Assembly (NCBI GenBank): GCA_000091205.1
Contig: AP006484.2
DNA: 64,000 nt
Direction: 5' to 3' (one strand)
Origin: Cyanidioschyzon merolae
Taxonomy: Eukaryota
Shown here: piece by piece, positions 20,160 to 61,258 of the stretch
Position numbering within the stretch: the stretch's first letter is position 1
Layout of the letters: each line of letters opens with the position of its first letter
Made by a program: the position numbers and the translations under genes
Notes under the pieces: model-generated
What the model saw: only the letters and a program-made list of their open reading frames with translations
The model's database searches: none
What the model was told of the DNA's origin: nothing

Positions 20160-22111
20160 CATTGCCGGCGGACTGGCCGCGCCCGCCGTCTGCGCTCGCC
20201 CAAGCTGGCTCGCGCTGCGTTTCGACCCCCGCGGGAATGCGTGCTTGAGCGGCGCGCTGCGTTTCGACCCCCGCGGGAATGCGTGCCTGAGCGGCGCGCT
20301 GTTCTCAGTATCGCTCCGACGCGGAGTTCTGCTCTGAACGCAGCTTCTTTTCGAGGTGCAACGCGGTGTCGTGCTTGGGCGTCGCAGCGCGAGCCGCCCG
20401 GCCTCGAGCAAGACAGCTCGATATGCCGCGTGGCTGCTACGACGTCGTTTACCGTGCCGAGACTAGGTCGCTCGCGTGCCGCGGAAAAGGCGATAGCTTG
20501 TTCGTGCGGGAGGAATGCAGAACCTAACCAGAGACTTTGGTTAAAAAGCAGCACGAACCGTGCTCGATGTCGACGGCGCCCGCACAGCTCAGGCAGATAA
20601 TCGCTGTGCACAGCAACGTGCAGGCGCAACTGCAGGCCTGCGAAGTCGAGCATTCGGGCGCTGACTCGGAGCGCAAAGCAGCACGCAAGAACGACAAGTA
20701 CTGGTCAGGGAGTGCGCAGTGTGCACGCACGCAAAATTCCCACAGCGCTCTAGTGAAGTGCGCTTGGAATGCTCGCTGCGCACCTGTACCCTGCACAGCA
20801 CCAGTGCCGTCGTGCGCCTGGTGCCGCGTTGCGCGCAAGTTTGCAGGTGCACGCATATGGGCATGCACGCATAGCCGAATATACACGTGTCCCAGTGCAT
20901 GCATTGTCGACTGTACACGTGTCCCAGTGCATGCATTGTCGACTGTACACGTGTCCCAGTGCATGCATGCGTGCTTCACGGCACGACAGCTGTGTATTCC
21001 TCTCTAGATATATGCAGTACGCATTTGCGCTCGCTGCAAGCGTATCGCGGAGCACAGACGCACTGTACACGAGCAATATGCACGCAAACGCGGACCGTCT
21101 GCTCCGTCCTTGCACATGGTTTTCGTATGGAGCAGAGAGAGCGTCGTTGATTTCGCGCTGAGGTCGCCCGGAGCCCAGTAGCAGACATATCCGCTTTGAG
21201 AGCCGTCACCGGGAGCATACCATTGCAGCCGCATGCTTCTCTTGGCAGTATGGGATCGGTGTCCGATTCGAATGCTGCTGGTATGGGGGCATAAGGTTCA
21301 GGGCTTTACGCCGAGCAGGATCTCGGAATGACCTAAACACCGCGCGCGCTAGCAATAACACCTACAGCATGGCTAGCGCACTGGTTCGAAGCGCCTGCGG
21401 ATGCAGCGGCGAGCATTGCATATCGACAACATCCAATAGGGTCTTGATAGGCTCGGGCACGCCCCGCATGCAACTTTCGACACATTTTCGAGGCCGTTCA
21501 CGGAACGTATGCAGCGTGGCGGCGGCATGCCCTCAGCGTCGTAGAACGAACGCGAGGCAACAGAGGCAGCAGGCGCAACCACAGGCACGATCGCTGCCGA
21601 CAAAGCCGATACCGCTGGAATCCCGTCGCTGTGCCGTTGCAACGCTTCGATGCGGCGCGCTTCCGCCCGATCACGTCGTTTTCTGGTGACTCGCACGCGC
21701 CACTGAGAAAGCGGTCATGTGTCTTGGGTGCAGGCATCGGGCAGGCAGCGGCAGATGGGCGCGAAACTCCGCGGCATGCGCTCTACGTGTTGTGGCGTCA
21801 CCAGGTGGCATTCTGGTGCTGGCGAAGGCGTCGGTATATGACGTACCGTCGATTGCTCTCTGGCGTCGCGTTCGCTACACGGCTCGGAAGAGCGTCGACT
21901 GCAAGCGCAGTCGCTGTCGTTCCCGATATCACTGACCCGATGGCTCTGGGCTGCTGACAGAAACCGCAGCGCTGCCGGAGCACTGCTCCAGCACGTTGGC
22001 CCAGGTCCAGCAATCTCGCTCGGACACGGAGCGCTTATCGGCGTTCTCGGTAGCTGCAAATCACCTGCGCCATCACGATACTGAGAACGAGCGAGAAACT
22101 CCTTGCGCTCG
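20160..22111 (+). repeat. Segmental duplication copy A, about 1.95 kb; the direct repeat partner is at 59381-61258
   Basis: Near-identical to 59381-61258 with only scattered single-base differences. Copy A carries one extra 38-bp unit at 20212-20287 ('gcgctgcgtttcgacccccgcgggaatgcgtgcYtgagcggc' twice) and one extra 32-bp unit at 20881-20976 ('acacgtgtcccagtgcatgcattgtcgactgt' three times against two). The ORF track shows matching ORF pairs, for example 20135-20653 against 59569-59832 and 21369-21689 against 60516-60836. Confidence 0.9.
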
Positions 22112-22222
22112 TGGCATACCCAAGTCCCAGAGGCTTAAAACGCCCGCGCAGGTGCAAATCGCAAGCGCCCGTTGCTTTCTCCTCGGATTCCCGTTCGACG
22201 CCCGACATTCCGCTGCACGCCT

Positions 22223-25200
22223 CTAGCTAAACTGCTCAACAAGCAGCTCCCAGGTTCCAGTTTCAGCATCATAACTAACGAAACGTGCGCCCTGCTGCTC
22301 CGCGTATTCTTGTAATCGTTGCCGAAATCGTTCAATCGCTTGTGGATCATTCGTTGGCTTTCCGGTTCGTTTGTCCATACGGAACACCTGCTCAAAACGC
22401 AAGAGCGCCCTTCGATTCAGGCCCTGTCCCGGGGGCGGGAGACCACTCCATCGATCGGACCTGGATGGCTGTTGTTGTTGTTGTTGCTGCTGCTGCTGCT
22501 GCTGAGCAGTCGTGCGGGTGCCTTTCGGCGGCATCGCGTCAGTATCGCGGGTCGGGTACAGGATGATCGTGCGCGGCTCAATCTGCACAATTTGATCCAG
22601 ATTGGCGTAGCGTAAATCCACCGGCTCCAGGAAACGAATTTCGGCAATGTGGCGACGGCCTAGTACAAAGTTAGAGACATGGGAGAGTGCTGCTTCATCA
22701 AGGGACTGAAGCTCGGCGAGCGGCGGTTTCGTATAGTACCCTGGTTTCGTGAGTCGCGGCACCCAAGCTGGCAATCGATCGCCCTGATCGGACGTTGAGG
22801 CTCCTGACGACACCGGTCCCTGTGCGTGGTACTCGAAGTGCGCACCTGGCGTCTGCTCGGAGCCTGGTGTGGCCGCTGACTCTTTTCCGGAGCGCTTCTC
22901 CGTACCCTGGCTACTGCGCAGTGGTACGATGGGTGACATGTCGGCAGCAAATGAAGGCGTTACGGTACCAGGAGCGTCGACGTTGGTGGCACGTGTTCGC
23001 TCCGGAGACGCATCCCGATCCAGAAGGTTTGCGCTCGGGCTCGCCAGCACTGCTTCCTGCGTGGTAATATCGGCGAGCGTCAATGTCGGTTCGGTTTGTC
23101 CTTGTGCGGCTGCGTCGCGGATCAGCTGCCTGATGCTTCGTTCTGGTTTGCCATTCTCGGTCTGGCGCAGGCGTCCGGGTGTCCATACGCTCGACCAGGA
23201 ATCGCCTGGCGTCTGATTCGGACGACCCCGGGCGACTGCTCGAGGTCGGTCAAACAACTCATGGAGCGGGACGCCACCAATGGAGGCTCCGTATGAGAAG
23301 GCTCGCACTTGACTTCTGGGCCGAACTCGATAGCTCGTCACGGGCGCGTTTGGTATCGATGCTAGTGGGGCCAGCAGCGACGCATGCGTGGTATCTAGCA
23401 CAGGCTCCGAGGTGACTCGAGTCCCTTGCCATCGCTCCGCATCAGTGGAGATGTTGCCCGCAGCGCCCGAGAGTGTCGGCAGCGGGCCGTACGGCGATGC
23501 GCTACTGGCGTTGCTTGCAGGCTGCGTTTGAAACGGAATCCCCTGCGGAGAAGCGTTCGTGGCAGCACCGAAGGCAGGCATCGCACCACTGCCACTACCA
23601 CCACCGAGGCCAAAACCTAGTCCAGACGGCATTCCAGTACTCGTAGCCGGCTGCATAGGACCCATATTCGCATTTGGGCTCGCCAAGGGTCGGAATGCTG
23701 ATCCCCCAAGACCGAACATGCCCCCAGAAGTTGAGGCACCGCCGCCAGGCTGTGTGCCGCCTAGGTTCGACCCACTCGATGACACTCCAAAGCGGAATAA
23801 ATCCCCAGTCGGCTTCGCACTCGTCTGGTTCGCTGCTCCGAATATGCCAGTTTGCTCCGAACGAGGTGTACTTGCGTTTCCTGACTGAAACGCGGGCGCT
23901 CCGCCTGCAGTCACCGTAGTGCTCCCTGTGCCAAAGAGGCCACCGGTACTGGTGCCGCTCTGTGCGGCACCAGCACCGGTTGATTGTCCACTTGGCTGAT
24001 TCGCTTGCGCTGCACCAAATCCGCCCAAACTAAATCTCGGAAGCGAGCTCTGTGCGCTTGGTGCTTGACCAGGCTGGCCACCAGTACCACCACCGCCTCC
24101 AATACCACTGCCACCAGCACCGAAGCTGCCTGCCGTACCCGGTGCGCCGCCTCCAACCAGGCCCGCCGACTGCGTGGATCCGCTGCCGCTTCCGCCGAAA
24201 AACGACCCGGGCGCGTTGCCTCCGAGACCGCCTCCGAACGATGGCATTGTATTGCTGAGACTACTCGTATTCTGGGTCGCGTTCAGCGTACCGAATGATG
24301 TTCCAGTGCCCAGCGGCCGCGATCCACCGAAACCGAGGCCACCGCTTGCAGGCGCACCGACAGTGCCTGACGTAGGAAAAGCGCCCGAGGTGCCCAGTGC
24401 TGCACTTACCGCTGGCTGATTTGTATTTGATCCGGCGCTCGCTCCAAAGCTGCTGAAAGCACCGGTCGTTGATCCAGGTGCACCAGCAAAGGGTGAAGGT
24501 CGGGCATTTGCGTTCGATCCAAACAAACCAGAGCCAAAGGGCGCATTCCCAGCACCCGTTCCGCTCCCTGCTTGATTGGATCCGAATGATGTCGTAGCAG
24601 AGGACCCGACACCACCGCCAAAGAGGCCGCCTGACTGACCCGCGTTTTGTCCAGGGATACCGAATCCCGTACCAGAACCTGTGGCGTTTGCATTCCCGAA
24701 ACCACCAGCTGAGGGTGCCGACCCAAATGCACCCCCAGTACTCCCAGCGGATGTGTTTTGTTGTTGTCCGAATGTCGTTCCCGAGATCGCCGATGCACCA
24801 AACGGGGAAGCGGCTCCTGAGGTACCAGCGTCACTGCGGAAAAGACCGCTGGGAGCAGTCAAACCGGTCGATGGCTTTGCTGCACCAAAAAGTCCTGTGT
24901 TCGTTGTGGAGGAACTGCCAAGGTTTCCAAAGAGCGAGCCACCACCCGTTCCGCTGGGTGCTGAACTACCTCCAGGGCCGCTTTGCCCCCGGTTACCCAG
25001 CTGGTAGTCTTCGAAACGGAGTTCCTCGAAGCTCTTCGATTCGAACCCGCTCATAAACACGATCGAATCGAAGAGTACCTGTTTGGTTCCGTGTGCCGTT
25101 GTTTCTGAGCTTGGTACTGGCCGAAAAGCCACCTGACCAGTGCCCTGGCTCGGTGCGGCACCCAGAGCAAGAGGCTGTGACCCTGAGGTGCCCGCTTGCC

Positions 25201-25546
25201 AGGCACTACCGCTTCCGGAGAGCGCACCCCCGCCAGCAGCGGCACCGGGGGCTCCGGTCACACCCGGGCGCAACCCGCCAGAAAACGAAGCACTCCCAAA
25301 AGGACTTGACCCGAAGGTGCTTGATGTGTTCGCGTTGCCCCCGAAAGGACTCATTGACGCTGAGCCCGTGTTTGGGCCTGGTTGTGCCGCTGGCCAGCCG
25401 CCAGCCTGGCTCAGCGCTGTTTGGGTGCCCGGCTGGCTCTGTGTGCTAAACAGCGACTGTGTTGGGGTTTGTGTCGGTGGATTTGCCCCGAAAGCACCCG
25501 CCAGTTGGTTATTCGACGGCTGCGTAGACGCGTTTCTACCGAACAT
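22223..25546 (-). CDS. GLFG-repeat nucleoporin of the Nup98 / Nup116 / Nup100 family, 1107 aa, ending at its C-terminal autoproteolytic-type (Nup98-APD) domain with no Nup96 portion
   Basis: The N-terminal two-thirds carry dense FG, GLFG, SFG and FGxxxFG repeats ('GLFGAAKPSTGL', 'GGLFGGGVGSS', 'SLFGNLGSSS'). The C-terminal approximately 150 aa, '...YYTKPPLAELQSLDEAALSHVSNFVLGRRHIAEIRFLEPVDL...TGTWELLVEQFS*', match the Nup98 autoproteolytic domain fold. The ORF stops right after QFS. A polyQ run is encoded by the CAG/CAA array at 22465-22507. Confidence 0.8.
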   Translation of the reverse strand: MFGRNASTQPSNNQLAGAFGANPPTQTPTQSLFSTQSQPGTQTALSQAGGWPAAQPGPNTGSASMSPFGGNANTSSTFGSSPFGSASFSGGLRPGVTGAPGAAAGGGALSGSGSAWQAGTSGSQPLALGAAPSQGTGQVAFRPVPSSETTAHGTKQVLFDSIVFMSGFESKSFEELRFEDYQLGNRGQSGPGGSSAPSGTGGGSLFGNLGSSSTTNTGLFGAAKPSTGLTAPSGLFRSDAGTSGAASPFGASAISGTTFGQQQNTSAGSTGGAFGSAPSAGGFGNANATGSGTGFGIPGQNAGQSGGLFGGGVGSSATTSFGSNQAGSGTGAGNAPFGSGLFGSNANARPSPFAGAPGSTTGAFSSFGASAGSNTNQPAVSAALGTSGAFPTSGTVGAPASGGLGFGGSRPLGTGTSFGTLNATQNTSSLSNTMPSFGGGLGGNAPGSFFGGSGSGSTQSAGLVGGGAPGTAGSFGAGGSGIGGGGGTGGQPGQAPSAQSSLPRFSLGGFGAAQANQPSGQSTGAGAAQSGTSTGGLFGTGSTTVTAGGAPAFQSGNASTPRSEQTGIFGAANQTSAKPTGDLFRFGVSSSGSNLGGTQPGGGASTSGGMFGLGGSAFRPLASPNANMGPMQPATSTGMPSGLGFGLGGGSGSGAMPAFGAATNASPQGIPFQTQPASNASSASPYGPLPTLSGAAGNISTDAERWQGTRVTSEPVLDTTHASLLAPLASIPNAPVTSYRVRPRSQVRAFSYGASIGGVPLHELFDRPRAVARGRPNQTPGDSWSSVWTPGRLRQTENGKPERSIRQLIRDAAAQGQTEPTLTLADITTQEAVLASPSANLLDRDASPERTRATNVDAPGTVTPSFAADMSPIVPLRSSQGTEKRSGKESAATPGSEQTPGAHFEYHAQGPVSSGASTSDQGDRLPAWVPRLTKPGYYTKPPLAELQSLDEAALSHVSNFVLGRRHIAEIRFLEPVDLRYANLDQIVQIEPRTIILYPTRDTDAMPPKGTRTTAQQQQQQQQQQQQPSRSDRWSGLPPPGQGLNRRALLRFEQVFRMDKRTGKPTNDPQAIERFRQRLQEYAEQQGARFVSYDAETGTWELLVEQFS

Positions 25547-25599
25547 GGTTTACCGCGTCAACGCTTCGTGGAAGCACAGCTCGTAATCGCTTTCATCCT

Positions 25600-27080
25600 G
25601 GTGCGGTGCATAGCAGTCGATTCGCTTTGGTGTGTGCACGATGCCGAACAGAATGTAGACGAATCGCCCTCAGGATCTATATTGTTTACTGAATAGTGTA
25701 AGGAGTACTGCATCTCTGATTCGGGTCAGTCGCACCACAGTACTCAGATGGTTGAGGAACTCTAAAAGAAAGAAGGATATGGGCTCTGTGCCAAAAAACT
25801 GGTATGCTCTATAACTGCTTTCGGTCTATTGTAGAGAACGACTTTTTGATCACCTGACAAAAAGCGAAAAAGCGAAGATTATAGATGCCATGAGCGTCTC
25901 TGTTTCTCAATAGCTTGTTCATGGGGCCTCAAAACGCTGGGACACAGTCGCCGAGAAAATGTCCTAGTTCACATACGGCTATCTTCTACAGATATCGCAA
26001 CGACAGCGTTTCTGGAACGTTGCGGTCGGTATGAAGCAGAGGTAAGCCAGTTTATTTTCACAGACGATGAGACATCCTTCGGACGAAACGGTCGGATCGT
26101 AGATGGGTATTCGCTGAGAAGGTGCGCGTTCTGTGTGCGATCGAACTCGAAGAGAACGACGACATCATCATCTGTTCTAGGAGGAGTGGATTCGTTTGGC
26201 GGCCTCGGTTTCGCTCGTGGAGACGGCGCATCCTACAGTACCAACCACTTTGTCGAATGATTGAAGGGTTTTCCCTGGCATCTGGTGACGTTCTTCTATT
26301 GGAGAACGCGGTATATCACCATTCCCTTGCGATGGAGCTTTCGCCGAATCTATCGGGATCGAGCTGCCTTTCATTTGTCCATACGATCCGTGGTTCAGCT
26401 CCATCAAAGACGTGTTTTTTATGTTGAAAAGTAATAATCGCCTCGGTGACCGAATCGCTGAAGCGTTTCGCACACGGCGACACACTGGGGCACATGTCGT
26501 CTCTCTTTCGAGAGTCCCTCCAGCTTCGGAAAGTTTCTCACCTCGGAGCAGAGAGAAGCGCATTCATTTTCAAGAAATAGAACAATCCAAGGGAAGGTTA
26601 TGGACATGGAAGTCGAGGATGCTGGAGCGCCGTCATCGCCGGGTGCATGAAAGAAACGAAAAGTAATCTCCTTCTCGTCGACCATCCCTCGGAGAAGAGC
26701 AAGTGAAGAAGAATAAAAAGAAGATAGATACGCGAGCAAAGTTGTTTGCCCAACGAGATGATGACGAGACTGGCATGGTACAGAGGGCGCGAATTCGATG
26801 ACTCCTTGCACGGAGGAGTTTCACCAGCGGCAATAAACGCCAGGAGTTCATGAAACGAGACTTGAACGCCACTGTCAATATCAGACGATGTGCGGTGCTG
26901 AAGACGGGACCCGAGCATCTCTCGCGACCAACTTCATGCGGCAGCCTCGCAAACTCGATGTGTTCAGGAAGAAGCTGAAACCGGTATTAGGGGGCCAATC
27001 AAAATAGCCGGGAGGCGCCTGTGCGTGTTTCTTCATATCCACTCCATGGCCGTGGGACATTTTTTGTTTCTCTGATCACA
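25600..27080 (-). repeat. Long copy of dispersed repeat family R in inverted orientation, ending roughly 55 bp upstream of the Nup98-like start codon
   Basis: The reverse complement aligns with 10380-11900 (examples in that feature's evidence). The 5' part also matches 7150-7450. Weaker similarity extends to about 27130. Confidence 0.75.
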
Positions 27081-28484: not shown

Positions 28485-31400
28485 ATGGTTTCATCACCCG
28501 CGATTCAGGTTTCTGCTGTCCAAAGAAACGTTGAAAGTGGTTGGCGGGCACCCACAGGCTACTCTGACTCAGAAGACACTGATGACGGGAAGGATGAGCG
28601 CCTTTTTCGCTCAGGTCCGCGACGGATCGAGGTGCCATCAAGTAGCGAGAGCGAAACATCGACCTCGCCGCCGTCAAAGCTTGCTCGATCGACACCGTCT
28701 GCGTCGAGTGCCTCTACAGATGGGATAACTGCTGGTGCAGGTGTGGATGAAGAAGGAAACGAATCGGATTACGTCGCACCAGGTGTTTCCTTTTCTCGTT
28801 TAGCACGACGATACACGCTTGCTAGGTCCTGGCTACCCGGTGTGCACCGTGCCCTCTTCGCAACGCCCGATGAAGCATTCGGAGCTCCCTCGACGGACAC
28901 GCCCATGGATATGAAACAGCATAATCGCTCCGTAGCGCGGACCCAGAGACCCGAGTCGCGTCACATACAGGCTACCGATGGAACCGGGGACCGCGCTGCA
29001 GCTGAGCGTTTAGAGCCGCTCGACGCGGCAACAGCGGCAACGCTGCAGCTGCTGCAGTCAAGCACGTCAACGGAACTGGGTGAACAACGTGAGCTGCATA
29101 AAGCAGTTGAGTTGTCGCGCAAATCCCTCATAGCGGATACCGCAAGCATGCATGCTACTGGGCAAGTATCCGACGCATTTCGCTCGCGGATTACGGAACA
29201 GACTCGCGCTCCGTCGCTTCTTGCGTCCGAAACGAACGTTCAAGTTGTTTCGGTGGCGGGCACTTCACCGAGAACGGCAGTTCTTCGATCCTTGGATCAA
29301 CTTCTTGAAGAGCGAATGCGTGGACTGGATATCGCCACAGCTTTCATGCCCATGGCTCGCGTCATAGGTCCTCTCGTGTTTGCGAATGGAGGCGGGCCTG
29401 AACGCAGCGCGAAGCGCGCTGCTTGTGGGGTCGTATACCCTTCCATGAAGATGTGGACGCCTTCGAAAGGCACCGCTGATCGGTCAGAGCTTCATCTCGG
29501 CCTGGTTCGTGTTGCAGACGACGCCGCAATAGAGGCATCCGTACACTGCGAGGCGACCAGCCGCTACCAAACACTCGGTGAAGCACTTGCCACGGGAAAT
29601 CGGCGCCATGATTTTTTCCAGGAACTGGTTACTCGCTACAGGACACAAAAGGATGAGCACGGTGAGATTGTTGCAAGCTTGTTGGACGCCCTGTATGGTG
29701 ATCACGCTGGAGCTGCATCAACATGGTATAGGTTTTCAGCATGGCTGAGGGATTGTGCCTGCCCCAAGATGCAGAGCGTAGATGAATTTCGAGACGATTG
29801 GCAACATGCGCGTGCCGTTTCTGCGGTTTCCGCTGCATCCGACGGGCAAGCACTCGACGAAGCGCTTTTTTTGCTATCCGGAGGCCAGGTGCTGGCGGCA
29901 GCGCAGCGGCTGCAAAAGGCCGGCGACTTGCGCCTCGCACTCCTTTTGAGTCGCTGTCTGGACCCGCATGAAGACTTGGCATTGGATGCGGCGAATCAAG
30001 TGGAAACGTGGGAAAACGATGGCCTTTCTGAAAAAACGCTTGGAGCGCGCCGTCTTGATCTCATGTACTTGTTAGCAGGCCAAGTACAGCGTGCTTCTGG
30101 TCATGCCCTCGTGTCAATGGATGAACCGCCTTGGTTCTGTGGACCGCATTTGACGTGGATACGGGCCTTTGCCTTATTTTTTTGGTACGCACGCATGGAT
30201 GCCAGTAGACGGGACGCTCTGCAGGGATCCATGGATGCCACTGCCGGTGCCGCTGATACGAATGATTCGTGTACCGACGCATACGCGGATGACGTGCGCT
30301 TCCGTATGCGGCTTAGCGCTGCGCTAGACGCCTACGAGACAGCCTGGAAGGCGGCGATGCACTTACGTAGCCGCAGTCGCGACCTAGATGATGATGAGGA
30401 GCAGGACGAGCACGAGGACGCGGAGGATGCGGTGCGACCGTCGGCAACAAGGTCACCGCGATCATCACCACCGGCGATGCACGCATCCTCTAGATCGCCA
30501 TCACCGATTCCCAGATCGCCTAGATCGCCTAGATCGCAGCTACGTGCATCCTCTAGATCGCCTAGATCGCCTAGATCGCCTAGATCGCCTAGATCGCCTA
30601 GATCGCCTAGATCGCAGCTGCGTGCATCCTCTAGATCGCCGTCACCAATGCCTAGATCGCCTAGATCGCAGCTGCGTGCATCCTCTAGATCACTGAGGGC
30701 GGTAGCGGCTGCGTCACTCGCCCGTGTGCCACCGCCGCTGCCGCCGGCCCTGGATCGTGCGCATCGCAGGGGCGAGCTGCGGCAGCTGCCGCTCACTGCA
30801 GATGAGGCAGAGACGGGGCCCGAGGATCGCGTCACCACCCTAGCGGTATTCGATGCTGTCTATGTACTCTTGCGGTGGTATTGTCTTTCGCCTACGTTCT
30901 GTAGCAGGCGTTATCAGCTTATGCCAGAGTGCTTTGGTCTTCACAAGAGTGACTCTTTGGATTTCCGGCTTGTGTGGTTGCTGTGGGAGTGCATAGGCAG
31001 CGGCGCATGGGTATCCGTGCCTTTTGACTGGATTGATCCGCTTCTACGAGCACAGTGCTACGAGGCGTATGCGTTGCAGCTTGAGTCTGCCGGGAGGCCG
31101 CTCGAGGCAATCTACGTTCGGGCGACGCTCAGTCGCGGATCGGATCTGCTCCAGTATCTGTGCTATCTGTGGCCGCGTCTGCTTCGAGAAAATGTCCCCG
31201 ACTGGCCTGTTTCGTTGCCTGTTGCAGGTGAGTTGCGAGGATCAGGACCCAGTTCGGAGGCTTCGTGGTCAACGGTGCGCACTGCCGCTGACATCGACTC
31301 GCTGCCGGTGATGCGTTGGCTCCGAGAGCGCGTCCGCCTGCCGCGGTGCTGGCTCCTGCAGGCACACTACCAATGGCTGGAGTTTGCGCTTGTGGCGGCG

Positions 31401-32435
31401 TTGTCGGATCTGGAGCATAGCGGGTCTCTGGCTGCTGGCATCTGGGATCCGCGGAAACTTGTATACGCGGCAGAGCTTGGTTGTGCCCTGCTCCAGACGG
31501 GAATCGCCTGGCTTGGAGCGTCGACCGCTCCACTAGGTCGTCTAAGAACGGGATCATTCGAGGCGGCTTGCGAGGACGCGGTGACCCCAAATGATGCCAT
31601 GGATACCGAGTTGTCGCATGACAACACGGACGGGTCCTTGTCAGCGTTTAACCATGCTGCACGCGTTGGGCTCGGTCCGCGGACCCGACTCATGATGCAA
31701 CTTCACCTCTGGGCTGCAGTGAGACTCGCGCCTCTTTTCCTCCTACAGCGTGGTATCGCCGGCTCGAGCGCTTGGAGCGGCGCGTTTGCTTCTCGAGAGC
31801 ACGCAATGCGTCTAGCGAACGACTGGCGTCAGATGCTCGAGGCATTTCAAGCGCTCGAAGCGGCAAGTTCCAGTCATCTGACTGTACCATCGCCGACACA
31901 GGCGCATGATTTGACGTTTTCGGACCTCGGCGGCTTGTTATTGGATCTGATTGCGGTCAGAGAGCACCTGGGGATGACGCTCCGCGCGGACGGCGTCGAA
32001 GTGGAATCTCCTCTGGATCTGCCGGTAGCAACGCTTTATCAAAGACTGCAACTCGTCGAAGAGGTTCGTGGGAGCCGCTTCGACATCTCATGGATTTTGC
32101 GTTTCTGTCAGCGGGTGTTGCGTTTTGCGGAAACGCAGTCGATTCCTTCTTGTCGCGGTACGCCGGCACTGTCATTGTTGGTGTATCACATTGCAGCAGT
32201 TGCTGGCCGACTGCTCTGTTTCAGTCTGATCCACGGCGACGCGTGGTCAGTGCTCGAGGATCCTGCAGATCGATCTGCGGCTCTGACTCGAATTCGAGGC
32301 CTGCTCGACGTGCTGCCGCTTCTAGAGGGAGATCGTCACCTGCTCTGGAGCGAACTAGAGTTTGCAGATGTAGCGTCCATGCGACAGAACCAGCGCTGGA
32401 TATTGCGAGACCCGCTGCGCGCGCTTCGTTTCTAG
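28485..32435 (+). CDS. Large hypothetical protein of 1316 aa with an internal Arg-Ser-Pro repeat region
   Basis: Uninterrupted ORF. The region 30480-30700 encodes 'RSPSPIPRSPRSPRSQLRASSRSPRSPRSPRSPRSPRSPRSQLRASSRSP...'. No catalytic domain was recognised. The start codon is uncertain because the N-terminus begins inside a low-complexity region. Confidence 0.5.
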   Translation: MVSSPAIQVSAVQRNVESGWRAPTGYSDSEDTDDGKDERLFRSGPRRIEVPSSSESETSTSPPSKLARSTPSASSASTDGITAGAGVDEEGNESDYVAPGVSFSRLARRYTLARSWLPGVHRALFATPDEAFGAPSTDTPMDMKQHNRSVARTQRPESRHIQATDGTGDRAAAERLEPLDAATAATLQLLQSSTSTELGEQRELHKAVELSRKSLIADTASMHATGQVSDAFRSRITEQTRAPSLLASETNVQVVSVAGTSPRTAVLRSLDQLLEERMRGLDIATAFMPMARVIGPLVFANGGGPERSAKRAACGVVYPSMKMWTPSKGTADRSELHLGLVRVADDAAIEASVHCEATSRYQTLGEALATGNRRHDFFQELVTRYRTQKDEHGEIVASLLDALYGDHAGAASTWYRFSAWLRDCACPKMQSVDEFRDDWQHARAVSAVSAASDGQALDEALFLLSGGQVLAAAQRLQKAGDLRLALLLSRCLDPHEDLALDAANQVETWENDGLSEKTLGARRLDLMYLLAGQVQRASGHALVSMDEPPWFCGPHLTWIRAFALFFWYARMDASRRDALQGSMDATAGAADTNDSCTDAYADDVRFRMRLSAALDAYETAWKAAMHLRSRSRDLDDDEEQDEHEDAEDAVRPSATRSPRSSPPAMHASSRSPSPIPRSPRSPRSQLRASSRSPRSPRSPRSPRSPRSPRSQLRASSRSPSPMPRSPRSQLRASSRSLRAVAAASLARVPPPLPPALDRAHRRGELRQLPLTADEAETGPEDRVTTLAVFDAVYVLLRWYCLSPTFCSRRYQLMPECFGLHKSDSLDFRLVWLLWECIGSGAWVSVPFDWIDPLLRAQCYEAYALQLESAGRPLEAIYVRATLSRGSDLLQYLCYLWPRLLRENVPDWPVSLPVAGELRGSGPSSEASWSTVRTAADIDSLPVMRWLRERVRLPRCWLLQAHYQWLEFALVAALSDLEHSGSLAAGIWDPRKLVYAAELGCALLQTGIAWLGASTAPLGRLRTGSFEAACEDAVTPNDAMDTELSHDNTDGSLSAFNHAARVGLGPRTRLMMQLHLWAAVRLAPLFLLQRGIAGSSAWSGAFASREHAMRLANDWRQMLEAFQALEAASSSHLTVPSPTQAHDLTFSDLGGLLLDLIAVREHLGMTLRADGVEVESPLDLPVATLYQRLQLVEEVRGSRFDISWILRFCQRVLRFAETQSIPSCRGTPALSLLVYHIAAVAGRLLCFSLIHGDAWSVLEDPADRSAALTRIRGLLDVLPLLEGDRHLLWSELEFADVASMRQNQRWILRDPLRALRF
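30487..30700 (+). repeat. In-frame 9-bp tandem array (agatcgcct)n encoding (RSP)n, interrupted by three copies of a longer unit 'agatcgcagctgcgtgcatcctctagatc'
   Basis: Read directly from the sequence: runs of 'cctagatcgcctagatcgcctagatcg...' interrupted three times by 'cagct[a/g]cgtgcatcctctagatc'. Confidence 0.85.
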
Positions 32436-34129: not shown

Positions 34130-34162
<33 letters not shown>

Positions 34163-34340
34163 ATAATGATGATTCTTATCGTTGACACCATTTCCATTTT
34201 GCACGGCTATCTGTGCTCGCGTCGGGCACCCGTTGGTACCTTCATACGAATGCTGGGTGCTCCTACTACCTTTTCAACTACGCGTGAGCATGAATGGTTT
34301 CTGATCCGAGTGCCTTGTGCCTTGCATCTCCTTGCAGTGC

Positions 34341-45508: not shown

Positions 45509-46429
45509 ATGGGAGCTATTGTCAGCCGTCTGCGGAGCGTGCCCGCACCTGCCTCAAGGCTCCAACAGAGCGAAACCAGCAGCGTCTACCGTAGTGGTGG
45601 TAATGGTGGTAATGGTGGTGGTGGTGGTGGTGCTCCGTCAGCAACCGAAATAACGAACCCGACAACAGACACACCAGGGAAGCAGCGTTGGCGGGTTCGC
45701 ACCCCGCCAGAGCGAGCGGCGTTCGTTCACCATATCCTCGTCGACGAGGAGGCAGAGGCGAAACGGCTTTGTGAGCTTCTGCGTCAGCAGGCCGCTCAAG
45801 GCGACAACGCGCTTCGAGAGCGCTTCGAAAGTCTGGCTTATCAGTATTCGCGATGCTCATCTCGTGACCGAGGAGGAACACTGGGCTGGATCCGTCCTCG
45901 AGAAACAACAGCGCTGTTTGACAATGCCATTTTCGAGACAAAGAAGCCTGCTGGGAGCATTGACGTGGTTCAAAGCGAATACGGCTGGCACGTAGTGTGG
46001 ATAGGACAGCGCCTGGAGCAGCAGGCGGCAACGCAGAGCAGTGCCAGTTCGGTACCGTCCACGACGCGCCCGTCCGAGACGCCAACTTCAGCCAGCAGCG
46101 TACCAGGTACTGATTACCTGCGACAGATTGAAAAACTCAGTGCTGCGCTGCATGCTCGACCGATGCCCAACGTTTTCCCGTCGCCAGAGGCGCTTGTCGC
46201 CCAGAGACGACCGCGACCTGAGGGGGCGCTCACCCATGCGCAAGCCCTTAGCATGTTGCTCGCGCATTACCTGGAACCACAGACCTGGTCGGTGGAGGCA
46301 TTAGCGAAAGCGTTTCGAATGGAGGATGCATCGAAGAGAGCGCTGATGGCACGGGCGTTACGAGCGGTGCGGCCCTGGTTGGAAACGCAGACACCCGAAG
46401 GCCTGCGCAGGCATCGGGAACTGTCGTAG
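45509..46429 (+). CDS. Parvulin-type peptidyl-prolyl cis-trans isomerase, Par14/PIN4-like, with a Gly-rich N-terminus and a roughly 130-aa C-terminal extension
   Basis: N-terminus 'GGNGGNGGGGGG'. Rotamase core 'VRTPPERAAFVHHILVDEE...RDRGGTLGWIRPRETTALFDNAIFETKKPAGSIDVVQSEYGWHVVWIGQR', to be compared with Par14 'VRHIL...[21 protein letters not shown]...FGYHIIMVEGRK'. Confidence 0.65.
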   Translation: MGAIVSRLRSVPAPASRLQQSETSSVYRSGGNGGNGGGGGGAPSATEITNPTTDTPGKQRWRVRTPPERAAFVHHILVDEEAEAKRLCELLRQQAAQGDNALRERFESLAYQYSRCSSRDRGGTLGWIRPRETTALFDNAIFETKKPAGSIDVVQSEYGWHVVWIGQRLEQQAATQSSASSVPSTTRPSETPTSASSVPGTDYLRQIEKLSAALHARPMPNVFPSPEALVAQRRPRPEGALTHAQALSMLLAHYLEPQTWSVEALAKAFRMEDASKRALMARALRAVRPWLETQTPEGLRRHRELS

Positions 46430-47165: not shown

Positions 47166-47332
47166 TTTGCGACATTTAGGAATTAAACGAACAGGTCATC
47201 GACTGGGCGTGCCCAGGTCGCCAGCTTCGAATCTCCCTCGTTCTCTTCGGGGTGCTCTCGAATGGACGTTTTTCACGACCCGAATGACCACGTCTCTCTC
47301 CCAGGCGATTAGGACGTATTCACTATCTTCCA

Positions 47333-54400: not shown

Positions 54401-55040
54401 CGCTGTTTGGCGGTTTGGAGCGCATCGCGACCCTGTCGGGCGCACTAGTCAGCGTTGCTGCCGACGTCGACGTGCATTCTGTTGCCTCCGTCGCTGGCGA
54501 GGATGCTACGGCTACAGTGGCTACTGGCGTTGGTGTAGACGCATGACTTTCCACTTGTCCCGCAGCGGGTACTGCATCGCTTGGGTTGTCAGTAAACTGC
54601 AGCTGGGCGTTTCCAGTTGCGGTCGTATACGTAGGTCGCTTCAGCAATGCCGTACTCGTCGCCCCAGCGGCTGGAGCGAAAGCACCCCGGCGAGCGTTCT
54701 GTTCGTCGTCATCGACTGAAGCAGTCTCACTGGAGGACGCCATGGTTGCTCCTTTGACTGGACCTTGCACCTCAGTTCGTGCCGGGTGCTTTGCAGGCGT
54801 TGCTGTTGTTGACGAACTCGACGTTTCCAGCAGCGTGCGGTTAGCGAAGCGTAGGTCAACATCGACGGGTGCGAGTTTCGAACTCGACGGAGGCGTCTCC
54901 AGTGGGCAAAGCAACCAGAAAGGATCCCTCTCTGGCTCGATGTGGGCGTCCAGAGTCGTTTCTGCCGTCCATTCGCTGGCGTCTGTTCCAGCTTCCCTGT
55001 AGTTCGACAACCACGTCGAACTTCTTTGCAAAGCCTCCAT
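51429..55040 (-). CDS. Large hypothetical protein of 1203 aa
   Basis: Uninterrupted ORF of 1203 codons with low-complexity stretches and no recognisable motif. It is transcribed divergently from TRM61. Confidence 0.45.
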   Translation of the reverse strand: MEALQRSSTWLSNYREAGTDASEWTAETTLDAHIEPERDPFWLLCPLETPPSSSKLAPVDVDLRFANRTLLETSSSSTTATPAKHPARTEVQGPVKGATMASSSETASVDDDEQNARRGAFAPAAGATSTALLKRPTYTTATGNAQLQFTDNPSDAVPAAGQVESHASTPTPVATVAVASSPATEATECTSTSAATLTSAPDRVAMRSKPPNSVPPSVDTMHPHIDRSSHAASIIQSSPVDALLRTSRSCATLPLQKRLRPASLQHALLARGGKRAYLPRSVSECTNYFAVGGATLEDPSLVSLSFRDLDSDAIGLARYPSLTGTHLKLSARDHAQHLVRSVEDMDGAAGRGSGTQQTPRMTISSDSGTRPDSSIAVSIESSTLKDALVSRMLTVRDPLRWNRLCTIRYNAFEWVLLEWPRGPVAFIDALLLDTERGVHQWCKVRAPPQWRQRQFAQSGAPDRSMLAVAVANTPAATPEPVTGVQHRTSAAAAAASDEQQPICRTNRAVRMAIATIASGCCAPRIDILQLCWRCTDSSGQSQHDGQTSGRTPSRGASSEQSPHHGTTGVPLIGDLQILAEIALPTLSKVRSLAWTSNDQSLLVSVANKCSYLLREQRLGSLVPERLLVAMPSDATLWRIERRYDSVVVEQGARSICASSQGYQQAQKAPGASNGPGGSVAALASSTVWRYSSGWPHTPTLGVFSSSENPAAGISNDLVPSLYWFYGSGIASVALDAIPSPSTKVPRFEPLPRYRSSSSAAFRAEPQLAACRVTHVHEIAGQAATPPPLFLSCTASRLLLWAPRAQVLLPEHTEAGAPATLPPRNGSGALQRATWNDSSDPASTDDALICIHEWFMVPMRPLWRRERTLRRLASHRTAAMFWLDGLAWPLRGDFGDKRYLLVIAAVTGSRSGRSALLWALLVSTAAETANVARGSVESALHRHTGHRALRRTVWQLERAAEVPLWVPLPPRWRPTTAPSTSTVQLIPTGMRLLPSTSESTTTNNRDSILALPLTRFQLVQSWCWLAGDMPTVQTMPLMRFAYTLTPLLVLLLPLRPVQPSAADRRYVERLLRQVRSARQQTASSPGTAPVLFASAPTSTGDRALLASSPEQLTEVLALARRARRFEVHPAAAAEVGVVEGAQPVHVLQQQRRIYSRPAMDAPPDFPHTEAFVDWLRDLPQRLVTGDGDAHERASMSSGRGRGGA

Positions 55041-55400
55041 GGTCGCTTTAGCGTTTCAGCGCCGCCTGTACGTGCGTCCTCCACACAGGTTAGACGACGT
55101 GCATGCCAGACGATGGCCCTCTGGTGCCACAACCTTGGCTATTCGCATCAAAGCCAAAGCAGAGAACACCACCACCAAAACAGCAACCACTCCTACAACA
55201 ACCGTTATCGAAAACACCACCGAATCCGAGTGCTGCTGCCTTTGTCTTCTACGACTAGTATTGCAAACGCTGTTGCGGAGACGATCAGCGGTACCGGATA
55301 CGAAGCCGGTGGCGTTTCTGGGCTCTTCTACACCAATAGCGAGCAACGTCCTTGGAACGACGTTGTACATTCGCGTTGCACCGTTATACTCCCTGCGGGC

Positions 55401-56417
55401 ATGCTGCTAGGCGCTGACGCCTCTCAAGGCTCTGGTCCAGACCAAGAACAGCTTCTCGTAGAGACGTGGCCTAATGAGTGGCAATGCATTCACCTCCAAC
55501 CCGGAGGTGTCCTACAAACCCGTTTCGGTGCTTTTTTCCACGACGACTTTCGGGGAAAGCGGCAAGCAGGCGACTACTGGTACGCTCGTCGTTCGCGTCG
55601 ACCCGGTGCCTTTCTACGCACGTTGCCCTTTCGCTTCCGAACGACTGTGCCGAACGTCACAAACAGACGCACGCAAGTCATTTACGCACCGGACGTAGCC
55701 TGTCTGCTCGCACGACTTGAGCTGGAGCCTGGCGCTGTCGTCGTCGAGGCCGGAACTGGAAGCGGAGCCTTGACCTGGGCGCTGGCGGTATCGGTTGCTC
55801 CGAACGGACGCGTGCACACCTACGAGTGCCATGAGGATCGTTTCCGTGCAGCTCGGGTGGAACTAACACAACAACTTGGGCACGTTTGGCAACCCTGCTG
55901 GACGCAACGTTCCTGGACACCCGCGCACCTGCTCTACTGTTATCACCAGGATGTGCGCGTGCAACCGTTCTACAGAACGGATAAAGCGGCTGCAACCGAT
56001 ACACGACCGTTGCCGGCCTCAGTGCAGGCCGTGGTGCTCGACATGCCAGAGCCACACCTCGTGGTCGAGCAAGCAGCGGTTGTGCTGCAACCAGGTCTCG
56101 GTGTTTTGGCAGCTTTCTTGCCCAGTGTTGAACAAGTCTGGCGACTACGAAAGGCACTGGGACAGAGCGCCTGTTTCTATGATATCCAGGTGTTGTCGAA
56201 TGTGAGCTGCGTCTGGCAATCGATGCGTCCAGTTCAGCCGCAGGGGTCCCGCATGCCAACGAAAAGCGTCTGGTCCCGCGTCTCGCAACGTTTCCAGCCG
56301 AACGGTGCACACACGGGGTATATTGTGGTTGCACGACGCCAAGCTCGGTTGCTGGACGGAGAGTCGTTGCTTTCAACGTTGGTCGTAGCGGAAAACAAGC
56401 GCGCACGACGTACCTGA
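55401..56417 (+). CDS. TRM61: tRNA (adenine58-N1)-methyltransferase catalytic subunit TRM61/GCD14; the ORF is open from 54942 but the start is placed at Met154 (55401)
   Basis: 'LQPGGVLQTRFGAFFHDDFRGKRQAG' corresponds to human '[23 protein letters not shown]'. 'RRTQVIYAPDVACLLARLELEPGAVVVEAGTGSGALTWALAVSVAPNGRVHTYECHEDRFRAARVEL' corresponds to '[67 protein letters not shown]'. The C-terminal 'HTGYIVVARR' corresponds to 'HTGYLTFATK'. Residues 1-153 of the raw ORF are His/Asn/Arg low-complexity, and the upstream Met at 55113 overlaps the promoter of the divergent gene. Confidence 0.75.
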   Translation: MLLGADASQGSGPDQEQLLVETWPNEWQCIHLQPGGVLQTRFGAFFHDDFRGKRQAGDYWYARRSRRPGAFLRTLPFRFRTTVPNVTNRRTQVIYAPDVACLLARLELEPGAVVVEAGTGSGALTWALAVSVAPNGRVHTYECHEDRFRAARVELTQQLGHVWQPCWTQRSWTPAHLLYCYHQDVRVQPFYRTDKAAATDTRPLPASVQAVVLDMPEPHLVVEQAAVVLQPGLGVLAAFLPSVEQVWRLRKALGQSACFYDIQVLSNVSCVWQSMRPVQPQGSRMPTKSVWSRVSQRFQPNGAHTGYIVVARRQARLLDGESLLSTLVVAENKRARRT

Positions 56418-57966: not shown

Positions 57967-59271
57967 TTATGGTGTTAGCGAAGAGAGGGTAATCTGGGGG
58001 CGCGGACTCCTGACGCACAGTATGTCCGGCCGCATGGGCGTCTCTTCTGTAACCTGGTTCGCCTCTATTGCGGTGGTCTTCTCGGGGGTCGCGGCGTTCG
58101 GCTCGGGCGCTTGGACGCGCGAGTTCGCGGCTCTGAGAACCTCATTTTCCCTCTGAAGGAAGCGAACGTGCTCCTCAAGCTCGCGCACTCGCTCACCGAG
58201 AAACCGAACATTGGCCAGGAGCAGCTCCTCTGCGTGATGATGAAGGCGTCGTGGTGACGCTCGCAACAAACCGCGATACGCCATCGACTCGCTCTCACCA
58301 GCCTGCTCGTTTCGGTTTCCTGCTTCGATGCGCGATGGCGCCGACGCTCGGCAGGTCCGCCGTGGCGGCGTTCCGATCATGTCATCCGGGCTGAAATAGC
58401 TTATGCTGCTCTTGCGTTGATGCGAGGAGAGCTTCCATCGAAGACGTTGCTGTCGTTTTTCGTGCATTTCTAGAGCAGATTCTCCGGTTTCAGAAGCGGC
58501 GGCATAGACTTCAATGGGATCCCACGCGCGGTTTTCAGACTGTGCGCAGTTATCGGAGGACGCCTTCTCAGAAGATAGCTCCTGCGCCACAGATGCACAC
58601 GCAGACTCGCATTGCGGAACGGATACGACAGCGTCCAGCTGTGAATTCGTGGACTCGGCAGCAAAGGATGCTCTGCGAGTCGGCTCTATTTCAACAGGAG
58701 CTGTAGATACCTTCTTGCTACTCCAAAACTCGATGACGTGCGGCGGTAAAGCCTCACCCCATGATTCCGTGTTTTGCACGGGGCGCAGCGGGTAACGAAA
58801 GCTCGAGCTCGGTATTCTTCCTATGCATGTACGAGATCTGAGCTGGTCTTTCGTTAAGAAATAGAGTCGCTTGGCCGGCGAAGCTCGCGATATGCGGCAA
58901 CTACTTCTCTCGTTGCACTCATCGCCGCGGGTTGTCTCTAGTAGAGCTGCATCGCCGTCAGGAGGTCTTTGCGCGGGCGCCGGTGACGGCGGCGTCGACA
59001 GTGCAAGTTTGAGTGCGCTTCCGGTGGCTGGCACGCTGACACTGGGCAAAAAAACAGGGACCGGCGAACGACTCAGTTGCGACTTTGTTGGCTTCCGCGA
59101 CCCCGTCCCAAGCGCGATATTCAACTGGACGAGTGGTGTACCAGGTGGCGCATCGACGGCAGCGCCTTGACCGGGCATCAGAGAGGTGTTTTCAACCTCG
59201 TGATCTGTGGATGCTAGAGGTGTCCAAGCAGATGACTTGTACCGTCTCGAATAAATCTTCGAGCGGGGCAT
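57967..59271 (-). CDS. Hypothetical protein of 434 aa with a C-terminal basic region and a leucine-zipper-like coiled coil
   Basis: The C-terminus 'RRLHHHAEELLLANVRFLGERVRELEEHVRFLQRENEVLRAANSRV' shows a heptad Leu/Val pattern after a basic patch. The rest is Ser/Pro/Ala-rich. Confidence 0.4.
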   Translation of the reverse strand: MPRSKIYSRRYKSSAWTPLASTDHEVENTSLMPGQGAAVDAPPGTPLVQLNIALGTGSRKPTKSQLSRSPVPVFLPSVSVPATGSALKLALSTPPSPAPAQRPPDGDAALLETTRGDECNERSSCRISRASPAKRLYFLTKDQLRSRTCIGRIPSSSFRYPLRPVQNTESWGEALPPHVIEFWSSKKVSTAPVEIEPTRRASFAAESTNSQLDAVVSVPQCESACASVAQELSSEKASSDNCAQSENRAWDPIEVYAAASETGESALEMHEKRQQRLRWKLSSHQRKSSISYFSPDDMIGTPPRRTCRASAPSRIEAGNRNEQAGESESMAYRGLLRASPRRLHHHAEELLLANVRFLGERVRELEEHVRFLQRENEVLRAANSRVQAPEPNAATPEKTTAIEANQVTEETPMRPDILCVRSPRPQITLSSLTP

Positions 59272-59380
59272 CAGATCAGAAGGGTGGCGACTCGGTGTGC
59301 CAACCGTGCAGCCCCCGGACAGCTATTGCCTTGGCGTGTCTAGCACTTGACAGAGAGATAACCGCCAGATCGCTAGTTTG

Positions 59381-61258
59381 AATTGCCGGCGGACTGGCCG
59401 CGCCCGCCGTCTGCGCTCGCCCAAGCTGGCTCGCGCTGCGTTTCGACCCCCGCGGGAATTCGTGCCTGAGCGGCGCGCTGTTCTCAGTATCGCTCCGACG
59501 CGGAGTTCTGCTCTGAACGCAGCTTTTTTTCGAGGTGCAACGCGGTGTCGTGCTTGGGCGTCGCAGCGCTAGCCGCCCGGCCTCGAGCAAGACAGCTCGA
59601 TATGCCGCGTGGCTGCTACGACGTCGTTTACCGTGCCGAGACTAGGTCGCTCGCGTGCCGCGGACAAGGCGATAGCTTGTTCGTGCGGGAGGAATGCAGA
59701 ACCTAACCAGAGACTTTGGTTAAAAAGCAGCACGAACCGTGCTCGATGTCGACGGCGCCCGCACAGCTCAGGCAGATAATCGCTGTGCACAGCAACGTGC
59801 AGGCGCAACTGCAGGCCTGCGAAGTCGAGCATTCGGGCGCTGACTCGGAGCGCAAAGCAGCACGCAAGAACGACAAGTACTGGTCAGGGAGTGCGCAGTG
59901 TGCACGCACGCAAAATTCCCACAGCGCTCTAGTGAAGTGCGCTTGGAATGCTCGCTGCGCACCTGTACCCTGCACAGCACCAGTGCCGTCGTGCGCCTGG
60001 TGCCGCGTTGCGCGCAAGTTTGCAGGTGCACGCATATGGGCATGCACGCATAGCCGAATGTACACGTGTCCCAGTGCATGCATTGTCGACTGTACACGTG
60101 TCCCAGTGCATGCATGCGTGCTTCACGGCACGACAGCTGTGTATTCCTCTCTAGATATATGCAGTACGCATTTGCGCTCGCTGCAAGCGTATCGCGGAGC
60201 ACAGACGCACTGTACACGAGCAATATGCACGCAAACGCGGACCGTCTGCTCCGTCCTTGCACATGGTTTTCGTATGGAGCAGAGAGAGCGTCGTTGATTT
60301 CGCGCTGAGGTCGCCCGGAGCCCAGTAGCAGACATATCCGCTTTGAGAGCCGTCACCGGGAGCATACCATTGCAGCCGCATGCTTCTCTTGGCAGTATGG
60401 GATCGGTGTCCGATTCGAATGCTGCTGGTATGGGGGCATAAGGTTCAGGGCTTTACGCCGAGCAGGATCTCGGAATGACCTATACACCGCGCGCGCTAGC
60501 AATAACACCTACAGCATGGCTAGCGCACTGGTTCGAAGCGCCTGCGGATGCAACGGCGAGCATTGCATATCGACAACATCCAATAGGGTCTTGATAGGCT
60601 CGGGCACGCCCCGCATGCAACTTTCGACACATTTTCGAGGCCGTTCACGGGACGTATGCAGCTTGGCGGCGGCATGCCCTCAGCGTCGTAGAACGAACGC
60701 GAGGCAACAGAGGCAGCAGGCGCAACCACAGGCACGATCGCTGCCGACAAAGCCGATACCGCTGGAATCCCGTCGCTGTGCCGTTGCAACGCTTCGATGC
60801 GGCGCGCTTCCGCCCGATCACGTCGTTTTGTGGTGACTCGCACGCGCCACTGAGAAAGCGGTCATGTGTCTTGGGTGCAGGCATCGGGCAGGCAGCGGCA
60901 GATGGGCGCGAAACTCCGCGGCATGCGCTCTACGTGTTGTGGCGTCACCAGGTGGCATTCTGGTGCTGGCGAAGGCGTCGGTATATGACGTACCGTCGAT
61001 TGCTCTCTGGCGTCGCGTTCGCTACACGGCTCGGAAGAGCGTCGACTGCAAGCGCAGTCACTGTCGTTCCCGATTTCACTGACCCGATGGCTCTGGGCTG
61101 CTGACAGAAACCGCAGCGCTGCCGGAGCGCTGCTCCAGCACGTTGGCCCAGGTCCAGCACTCTCGCTCGGACACGGAGCGCTTATCGGCGTTCTCGGTAG
61201 CTGCAAATCACCTGCGCCATCACGATACTGAGAACGAGCGAGAAACTCCTTGCGCTCG
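59381..61258 (+). repeat. Segmental duplication copy B, about 1.88 kb; the direct repeat partner is at 20160-22111
   Basis: See copy A. The boundaries were read directly. At the left edge the two copies share 'attgccggcggactggcc' and diverge just before it. At the right edge they share '...gagaaactccttgcgctcg', after which copy A continues 'tggcatac' and copy B continues 'agacgtga'. Confidence 0.9.

Follow-up and report, generated by a model that had tools for sequence, protein, structure and literature searches.

The arms of primate Y-chromosome palindromes and of the plastid inverted repeat are kept more than 99% identical over the long term by arm-to-arm gene conversion, non-coding sequence included. 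In Leishmania, repeated intergenic elements are used to form extrachromosomal circles and as units of amplification and deletion. Mammalian gene pairs have been converted for more than 100 million years (PMC2720389), and the theory of interlocus gene conversion has been reviewed (PMC3924837). Here we describe two nearly identical direct repeats, copies A and B, in a window of 64,000 nucleotides (the whole stretch of DNA that was analyzed) from chromosome 2 (457,013 bp; contig AP006484.2) of Cyanidioschyzon merolae 10D. Unlike the mammalian gene pairs, the repeated unit is nearly all non-coding, comprising a spacer and a short gene tail, and the two copies bracket ~37 kb of probably essential single-copy genes. 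Comparison with two other species suggests that the pair likely arose long ago by intrachromosomal duplication and has since stayed nearly identical through gene conversion, that is, by concerted evolution.

The copies were delimited by repeat search, BLASTN and MAFFT alignment, and the features that define the pair are given below.

20161-22111, minus strand: repeat copy A, the derived copy, filling the spacer between the Nup98 stop (22223) and the ATG (20039) of a Sec14-like gene
59382-61258, minus strand: repeat copy B, the ancestral locus, comprising the 3' coding end of DHDDS and the entire spacer that follows it
60862-62298, minus strand: DHDDS (dehydrodolichyl-diphosphate synthase, a cis-prenyltransferase) coding sequence, 478 aa, identical to BAM78930.1
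21715-22111, minus strand: copy of the tail of the DHDDS open reading frame (ORF) inside copy A, a fragment downstream of Nup98 that lacks the DHDDS body

All three methods recovered the two near-identical direct repeats proposed in a preliminary description of the window, both of whose start coordinates were off by one. Copies A (1951 bp) and B (1877 bp) lie in direct orientation, and both edges are sharp, with identity at background within a few bases. In 10D the copies are ~99.3% identical across 1.9 kb and, given this identity, chance is no issue for the match. A 10-sequence MAFFT alignment revealed 13 aligned substitutions and two tandem-unit indels between them, in agreement with the scattered single-base changes and two mini-repeat indels described earlier. 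Unique sequence remains on either side of copy A, 111 bp of it next to the Nup98 stop and 121 bp next to the Sec14-like ATG. In gene orientation, copy B starts inside the DHDDS ORF, 132 codons before the stop, and ends 110 bp before the ATG (59271) of a gene encoding 434 aa. Each copy was previously said to lie 3' of one minus-strand gene and 5' of another, and this holds for Nup98 and the Sec14-like gene (A) and for DHDDS and the 434-aa gene (B). Copy B is not purely intergenic, because DHDDS codons from ~347 onward, the last 132, make up its right-hand 397 bp (60862-61258).

We compared C. merolae with a relative represented by Joint Genome Institute (JGI) contig Ga0438750_00027 (186.6 kb) and with Cyanidiococcus yangmingshanensis. 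In the relative, positions 11007-12719 of stretch L021 match positions 8098-9810 of stretch L025 over 1713 bp with 99.77% identity; one contig carries both copies on the same strand at a distance of 33.5 kb. The L021 copy begins inside the 3' end of DHDDS, and the L025 copy is situated in the Nup98/Sec14-like spacer. Further assemblies of the relative break ~100-135 nt inside its repeat (L022, L023, L026). In Cyanidiococcus, the sequence from the DHDDS 3' end onward (L024, 11006-12018) matches part of the Nup98/Sec14-like spacer (L027, 8884-9899) over 1017 bp with 97.05% identity. All three species carry the repeat in direct orientation at the same two loci with a spacing of 33-39 kb; a missing second copy at the orthologous site was looked for, and the copy was present in both other species examined. 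The relative and Cyanidiococcus agree on the DHDDS codon that marks the upstream boundary, with RQ(S/C) before it and A after it; in C. merolae the boundary lies 33 nt further in. At the downstream boundary, the motif GGCGGGCGCGGC(C)AGT is common to C. merolae and Cyanidiococcus, and the B flanks of both start with TCAAA. The relative and C. merolae are 63% identical in DHDDS and 55% in the Sec14-like protein; for these two proteins, identity is 66-67% between the relative and Cyanidiococcus and 55-63% between C. merolae and either. Since both loci carry the repeat in three species, with the same or near-matching boundaries, the duplication is ancient, and the comparison indicates that it predates the deepest split among the three.

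The sequence of the repeat was found to differ from species to species. BLASTN gave no match between repeats of different species, and between-species global alignment scores were 0.5 to 4.8 standard deviations (SD) above shuffles. Conservation was limited to the first 30-57 nt, which encode the DHDDS C-terminus, and to a block containing CACGTG. Paralogs within a genome (99.3%, 99.77% and 97.05%) are far more alike than orthologs between species, a contrast that is the classical mark of concerted evolution. The copies are near-identical within a genome, dissimilar between species and orthologous in position in all three, and this combination supports the ongoing gene conversion that the preliminary description had offered as one possibility. 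In each of the three species the repeat has a GC content of 0.60-0.61, compared with an average of 0.544 in the remaining intergenic DNA of the window and 0.51-0.54 in several spacers of both other species; this excess is compatible with GC-biased gene conversion and is no proof of it.

Polymorphism among C. merolae-like strains points the same way. Ten complete copies were aligned, namely A and B of 10D, four more A and four more B, with six metagenome samples represented, and 33 single-nucleotide polymorphism (SNP) columns were found. Three genomes with both copies could be compared by copy and by strain. Sites that separate A from B, four to five in number, occurred near the edges only (column 121 and columns 1754-1854), and sites that separate strains and are common to A and B filled the interior (columns 127-1357), with 4, 6 and 8 per strain pair. 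No site of the third possible partition was present across the three strain pairs. By our own estimate, which takes a branch divergence of ~0.25%, parallel identical mutation is expected to produce ~0.004 such sites. A G at column 593 is private to 10D and present in both of its copies, which are identical along an 850-bp interior stretch save for the 32-bp indel. The relative has four A-B mismatches, every one of them within the outer 15% of its repeat. These results, with interior variants sorted by strain and edge variants by copy, agree with concerted evolution.

We investigated which locus came first by examining the DHDDS tail. At the boundary, C. merolae DHDDS reads WSDACSRL outside the repeat and ERKEFLARSQ inside it; the corresponding sequence is WSDGCNRLDRKEFLTRPQ in the relative and WSDTCTRLERKELL in Cyanidiococcus. 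Homology with DHDDS of other Cyanidiophyceae crosses into the repeat, with RL followed by ERKEFLARSQ aligning with RLDRKEFLTRPQ and RLERKELL. The gene order DHDDS, spacer, next gene, TRM61 is kept in the relative. Because DHDDS homology enters the repeat and the order from DHDDS to TRM61 is conserved, locus B is ancestral at both of its junctions and copy A is derived. A short sequence beside copy A may preserve the earlier edge.

22112-22145, minus strand: candidate eroded remnant of the ancestral repeat edge, found by direct reading and suggestive only

Its skeleton CTCTGG...ATGCCAC matches the codons of LxWSDxC, which the repeat still includes in the two other species. Of the DHDDS residues that the repeat encodes, only the first 10-19 (ERKEFL...) are conserved in both other species. 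The possibility that the tail is a constrained coding sequence was rejected on these grounds and on its SNPs. Since the seven SNPs in the tail comprise three synonymous and four non-synonymous changes, most of the annotated 132-aa tail is probably unconstrained. At 478 aa, the annotated C. merolae DHDDS exceeds its orthologs (379 and 419 aa) by 59-99 aa, and the extra C-terminal sequence is repeat-derived and unrelated between species; the functional C-terminus may be much shorter than annotated.

Apart from the DHDDS end, the CACGTG element is the sole interior element kept across the three species, and in C. merolae it takes the form of a 32-bp tandem unit. The tandem units were mapped with Tandem Repeats Finder (TRF).

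20864-20968, minus strand: 32-bp tandem units in copy A, 3.3 copies, with GGGACACGTGT and TGCATGCA
60043-60115, minus strand: 32-bp unit array in copy B, 2.3 copies
20211-20301, minus strand: 42-bp tandem duplication, 2.2 copies, near the promoter-proximal end of copy A

The conserved interior block spans 60-80 nt with the core GCACGCAT...C(C/T)GGGACACGTGT. It is the only significant interior local block, with local alignment scores 2 to 12 SD above shuffles between species. The 11-mer GGGACACGTGT has five matches in the 64-kb window, all inside the two copies, against 0.02 expected, and it occurs once in each of four loci from the two other species, always within the repeat and on the gene-sense strand. 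CACGTG is a G-box/E-box bound by basic helix-loop-helix (bHLH) and basic leucine zipper (bZIP) factors (background in PMC2839125), and a literature search on this motif returned nothing beyond general bHLH background. The conserved GGGACACGTGT element is likely a cis-regulatory site and is a candidate regulatory element common to two otherwise unrelated genes. The TRF counts of the 32-bp unit match the three in A and two in B reported earlier; the third unit was seen solely in copy A of 10D. The other unit was described as 38 bp, present twice in A and once in B, and these copy numbers stand for 10D, with a period of 42 bp instead of 38. Four of the five A copies have the 42-bp duplication and no B copy does; the unit is single in copy A of sample 3300005861. 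A plus-strand ORF over the 32-bp array, predicted by gene callers, encodes 156 aa in copy A and 193 aa in copy B. A hidden protein gene was considered for this 183-193-aa ORF and rejected, as the ORF spans the array, is frameshifted by unit number and shows no between-species conservation. No tRNA was detected by a tRNA scan of the repeat, and a search of the repeat for structured RNA gave a sole Rfam match at chance level (E = 0.56; 23 bits against a gathering score of 90).

These observations can be accommodated in the following scheme. Before the three species split, a segment consisting of the last DHDDS codons and the entire downstream spacer, that is, the upstream region of the next gene, would have been copied in direct orientation into the short Nup98/Sec14-like spacer ~35 kb away. 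Both copies would then have been retained, each being the sole 3' flank of one gene and the sole upstream region of another and each carrying GGGACACGTGT. Recurrent non-crossover gene conversion, through ectopic homologous recombination, would outpace mutation and prevent A and B from diverging; it would homogenize the interior and be less effective at the edges, and the C. merolae edge may have been eroded by 33 nt. A crossover between the direct repeats would excise 37 kb. Such crossovers are presumably lethal and would never be fixed because the interval includes Nup98, Nup96, ATP-citrate lyase (ACL), RagC and TRM61. The predicted outcome is concerted evolution, with full turnover between species and 97-99.8% identity within a genome. 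Experiments in C. merolae 10D and Cyanidiococcus popped out a marker by direct-repeat recombination between two UBQ terminators (PMC13353863); the 10D experiment bears out the earlier statement that direct repeats of this kind can recombine.

Several points weigh against this reading. We infer that gene conversion is the homogenizing mechanism, and no conversion event was directly observed. The by-strain sharing comes mostly from metagenome contigs, whose interiors may be mis-phased or collapsed, which would inflate the sharing; the finished 10D sequence contributes one private shared site and two more relative to one strain, which is trustworthy evidence but little of it. Cyanidiococcus A and B come from two different assemblies, so that their 97% identity includes strain divergence, and their mismatches do not cluster toward the edges. 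The repeat is modestly richer in GC, and values of 0.58-0.60 also occur in two further intergenic stretches of the window. The genome-wide copy number of two was assessed through a limited metagenome collection of five stretches. The promoter and terminator roles of the copies, like the lethality of a 37-kb deletion, are deduced from gene content.

The preliminary description had also raised the possibility of an assembly artefact, in which a single real copy was doubled by misassembly. The 2004 draft of the C. merolae genome indeed had misassemblies, which were corrected in 2007; the genome is finished telomere to telomere, with bacterial artificial chromosomes and polymerase chain reaction used for chromosome finishing (PMC1955436), and the supplements of Nozaki 2007 contain no list of gaps. 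Independently, JGI contig Ga0078972_1002768 (56,253 bp; L002, L004, L016, L017) is collinear with the window at ~99.2% identity and holds both copies, each in its own unique context, and 56.6-kb contigs from other samples contain both flanking genes. Contigs from several samples span each copy and both jointly, each copy has private substitutions, indels and unique flanks, and both copies, with identical boundaries, are present in every C. merolae-like strain sampled. Short-read contigs enter the repeat at its left edge and stop after 30, 38 or 78-80 nt (L001, L006, L009, L012), as expected of a sequence that continues into two contexts; the 30-nt break would equal k-1 if the assembly used k = 31, as we assume. 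With a finished genome and an independent 56-kb contig that holds both copies, we regard an artefact as extremely improbable. A duplication that is recent in the C. merolae lineage, or an independent recent one in each species, is only slightly less improbable. It would account for the 99.3% identity within 10D, which had prompted the earlier suggestion of a recent event, but two other species with 55-67% protein identity have species-specific near-identical repeats at the same loci. The donor, the target spacer and the orientation are the same in the three species and the boundaries are the same or near-identical; both copies share their boundaries in every sampled C. merolae-like strain, and three independent events with coinciding breakpoints are very unlikely. 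We also considered a mobile or dispersed repeat family, such as a solo long terminal repeat or the 253 interspersed 3.2-kb elements reported in C. merolae (PMC1955436), with two copies here by chance. A diverged dispersed repeat does occur in the window (10429-11844, 25639-27062 and 7111-7376), but the 1.9-kb repeat has no similarity to it. Moreover, the 1.9-kb repeat lacks target-site duplications, terminal repeats and TG..CA ends, none of its nine ORFs has a Pfam domain, and by TBLASTX its between-species protein conservation is limited to the DHDDS tail. One of its ends is the conserved DHDDS coding end, its positions are syntenic in three species, and a repeat 22-mer was found in the A and B contexts only, plus one probably chimeric contig (L018, described below), in a scan of five metagenome stretches. 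An origin as a mobile element is thus very hard to sustain.

A further possibility is that the identity or pairing of the copies is itself selected, with gene conversion still doing the homogenizing. The selected property might be the capacity to excise or amplify the 37-kb block reversibly in circular form, as at the direct repeats of Leishmania; it might also be paired domain boundaries, or strict co-regulation of the Sec14-like and 434-aa genes. In its favor, the architecture (two loci, orientation and 33-39 kb spacing) persists in three species despite full sequence turnover, one cis-element is conserved in every copy, and direct-repeat recombination is active in these algae. One contig also has the junction of a deletion product: in L018 (JGI24721J44947_10025869, 6086 bp), a single repeat connects the Sec14-like flank with the DHDDS flank, the structure expected of a 37-kb pop-out. 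L018 contains Ns, however, and is A-type at every diagnostic site until 98 bp from the edge, where it switches to the B flank, and it is probably a chimeric join at the repeat. It was rejected as the ancestral arrangement on the grounds that locus B synteny is conserved in the relative, and as a natural deletion allele it was set aside for its Ns and the flank switch in the last 98 bp. The circle-type junction (434-aa gene flank, repeat, Nup98 flank) was absent from the five metagenome stretches. The role of each copy as sole regulatory spacer explains retention more simply, and no proposed function requires 99% identity. We therefore consider selection on identity or pairing unlikely, and a direct-repeat architecture under selection, whether as a recombination substrate through which these haploid extremophiles excise or amplify the 37-kb block or as a paired regulatory or boundary module, marginally more doubtful still; if true, conversion would be a maintenance mechanism and no neutral by-product. 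Ancient duplication followed by conversion remains the reading that we favor.

The unique interval between the copies (22112-59381) is 37,270 bp long, and it and the flanking genes contain the following features.

22112-59381, no strand assigned: inter-copy interval, with Nup98, Nup96, an ACL subunit, an AAA ATPase, a parvulin peptidyl-prolyl isomerase (PPIase), a RagC-type GTPase, TRM61 and others
19056-20039, minus strand: Sec14/CRAL-TRIO gene (Pfam), identical to BAM78917.1, with copy A as its upstream region
22223-25546, minus strand: Nup98 (Pfam), with FG repeats and an S59 autopeptidase domain and with copy A as its 3' flank
28485-32435, plus strand: Nup96 (Pfam)
40432-41796, minus strand: ACL ATP-grasp/citrate-binding subunit (Pfam)
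42223-44286, plus strand: AAA ATPase (Pfam)
45509-46429, plus strand: parvulin PPIase (Pfam)
47333-49777, plus strand: RagC-type GTPase (Pfam)
54942-56417, plus strand: TRM61/GCD14 (Pfam)
57967-59271, minus strand: 434-aa ORF without a Pfam domain, with copy B as its upstream region

Pfam agreed with the earlier naming of ACL, Nup98, RagC and TRM61, and identified Nup96 as well. The ortholog of the 434-aa ORF comes after the repeat in Cyanidiococcus. Exact-protein look-ups with Nup98, the 434-aa ORF and the DHDDS of the window returned no entry. Nup98 and Nup96 are separate, divergently transcribed genes, with no single Nup98-96 precursor; the Nup98 ORF stops at the end of the S59 autopeptidase domain (...EQFS followed by the stop), and the same separate arrangement is found in both other species (L025, L027). 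Inside the Nup96 ORF, tandem repeats of 9 bp and 78 bp (AGATCGCCT units) are located at 30513-30669, where BLAST showed several indels between a metagenome contig and 10D. The two ACL subunits are encoded by separate genes ~25 kb apart. The ATP-grasp/citrate-binding subunit (40432-41796, minus strand) is within the 37-kb interval, and the CoA-ligase/citrate-synthase subunit is outside it (L002, 3700-5673, past the window end), beyond DHDDS and an N-acetylglutamate kinase/synthase gene.

Other repeats and assembly breaks were found in the window. The copies of the diverged dispersed repeat (10429-11844; 25639-27062, inverted; 7111-7376) are ~68-71% identical to one another, occupy AT-richer spacers and are not homogenized. 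This repeat presumably corresponds to the R repeats of the preliminary description and may be a candidate member of the 253-copy element (PMC1955436). TRF detected a 43-bp tandem array with 21 copies at 94% identity at the window start (213-1119), which may be satellite or subtelomere-like, and 51 nt at 13-62 are 86% identical to part of the dispersed repeat (10786-10836). Many independent contigs from metagenomes and Logan, including the 56-kb ones, end within ~110 bp of one another at 18741, 18755, 18759, 18761 and 18852. This cluster lies at the 3' end of a kinase gene (15739-18915), and two stretches, L006 and L008, read through it; assemblies may break here at a further repeat or at a site that varies between strains.

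C. merolae is a benchmark for the simplest free-living eukaryotic genome and a genetic model based on homologous recombination, and the repeat pair would provide a long-term read-out of ectopic gene conversion without selection on a protein. The A-B equilibrium divergence of ~0.2-0.7%, taken from same-assembly pairs, would imply a per-site conversion rate well above the mutation rate. In practical terms, short reads are not uniquely mappable in the repeat, targeting constructs that use the repeat flanks can recombine at the wrong locus, and the annotated DHDDS C-terminus is largely repeat-derived and fast-evolving. Literature searches on segmental duplication, gene conversion or concerted evolution in Cyanidioschyzon yielded no description of the repeat, and a search by gene product name was likewise empty. 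Although conversion of this kind is a well-known mechanism, the searched literature contained no whole-intergenic, non-coding example that is conserved across genera.

Among described systems, the pair resembles interlocus concerted evolution (PMC2720389, PMC3924837) in that paralogs are more similar than orthologs, the duplication predates speciation, polymorphisms seem to form a tract-like mosaic, and differences tend to lie toward the homology edges. Because the C. merolae unit is almost entirely non-coding, purifying selection on a protein cannot add to the similarity of A and B. Low-copy repeats and recent segmental duplications, the substrates of non-allelic homologous recombination, are likewise kilobase-scale direct repeats of more than 97% identity that can mediate deletion or duplication, but the C. 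merolae pair, at orthologous positions in three species, is not recent. Like the Leishmania units, the copies are intergenic direct repeats that flank a multigene block in a recombination-proficient unicellular eukaryote, so that circles and deletions are mechanistically possible; unlike them, they number two, with no genome-wide family, and neither an amplicon nor a circle junction was found in the five stretches. Y palindromes and the plastid inverted repeat share with the pair the turnover between species alongside identity within a species. Those repeats, however, are inverted, and a crossover inverts their spacer, whereas the C. merolae repeats are direct and shorter (1-2 kb), and a crossover deletes the interval between them. 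The setting also differs from such systems in being one of the least redundant eukaryotic genomes known.

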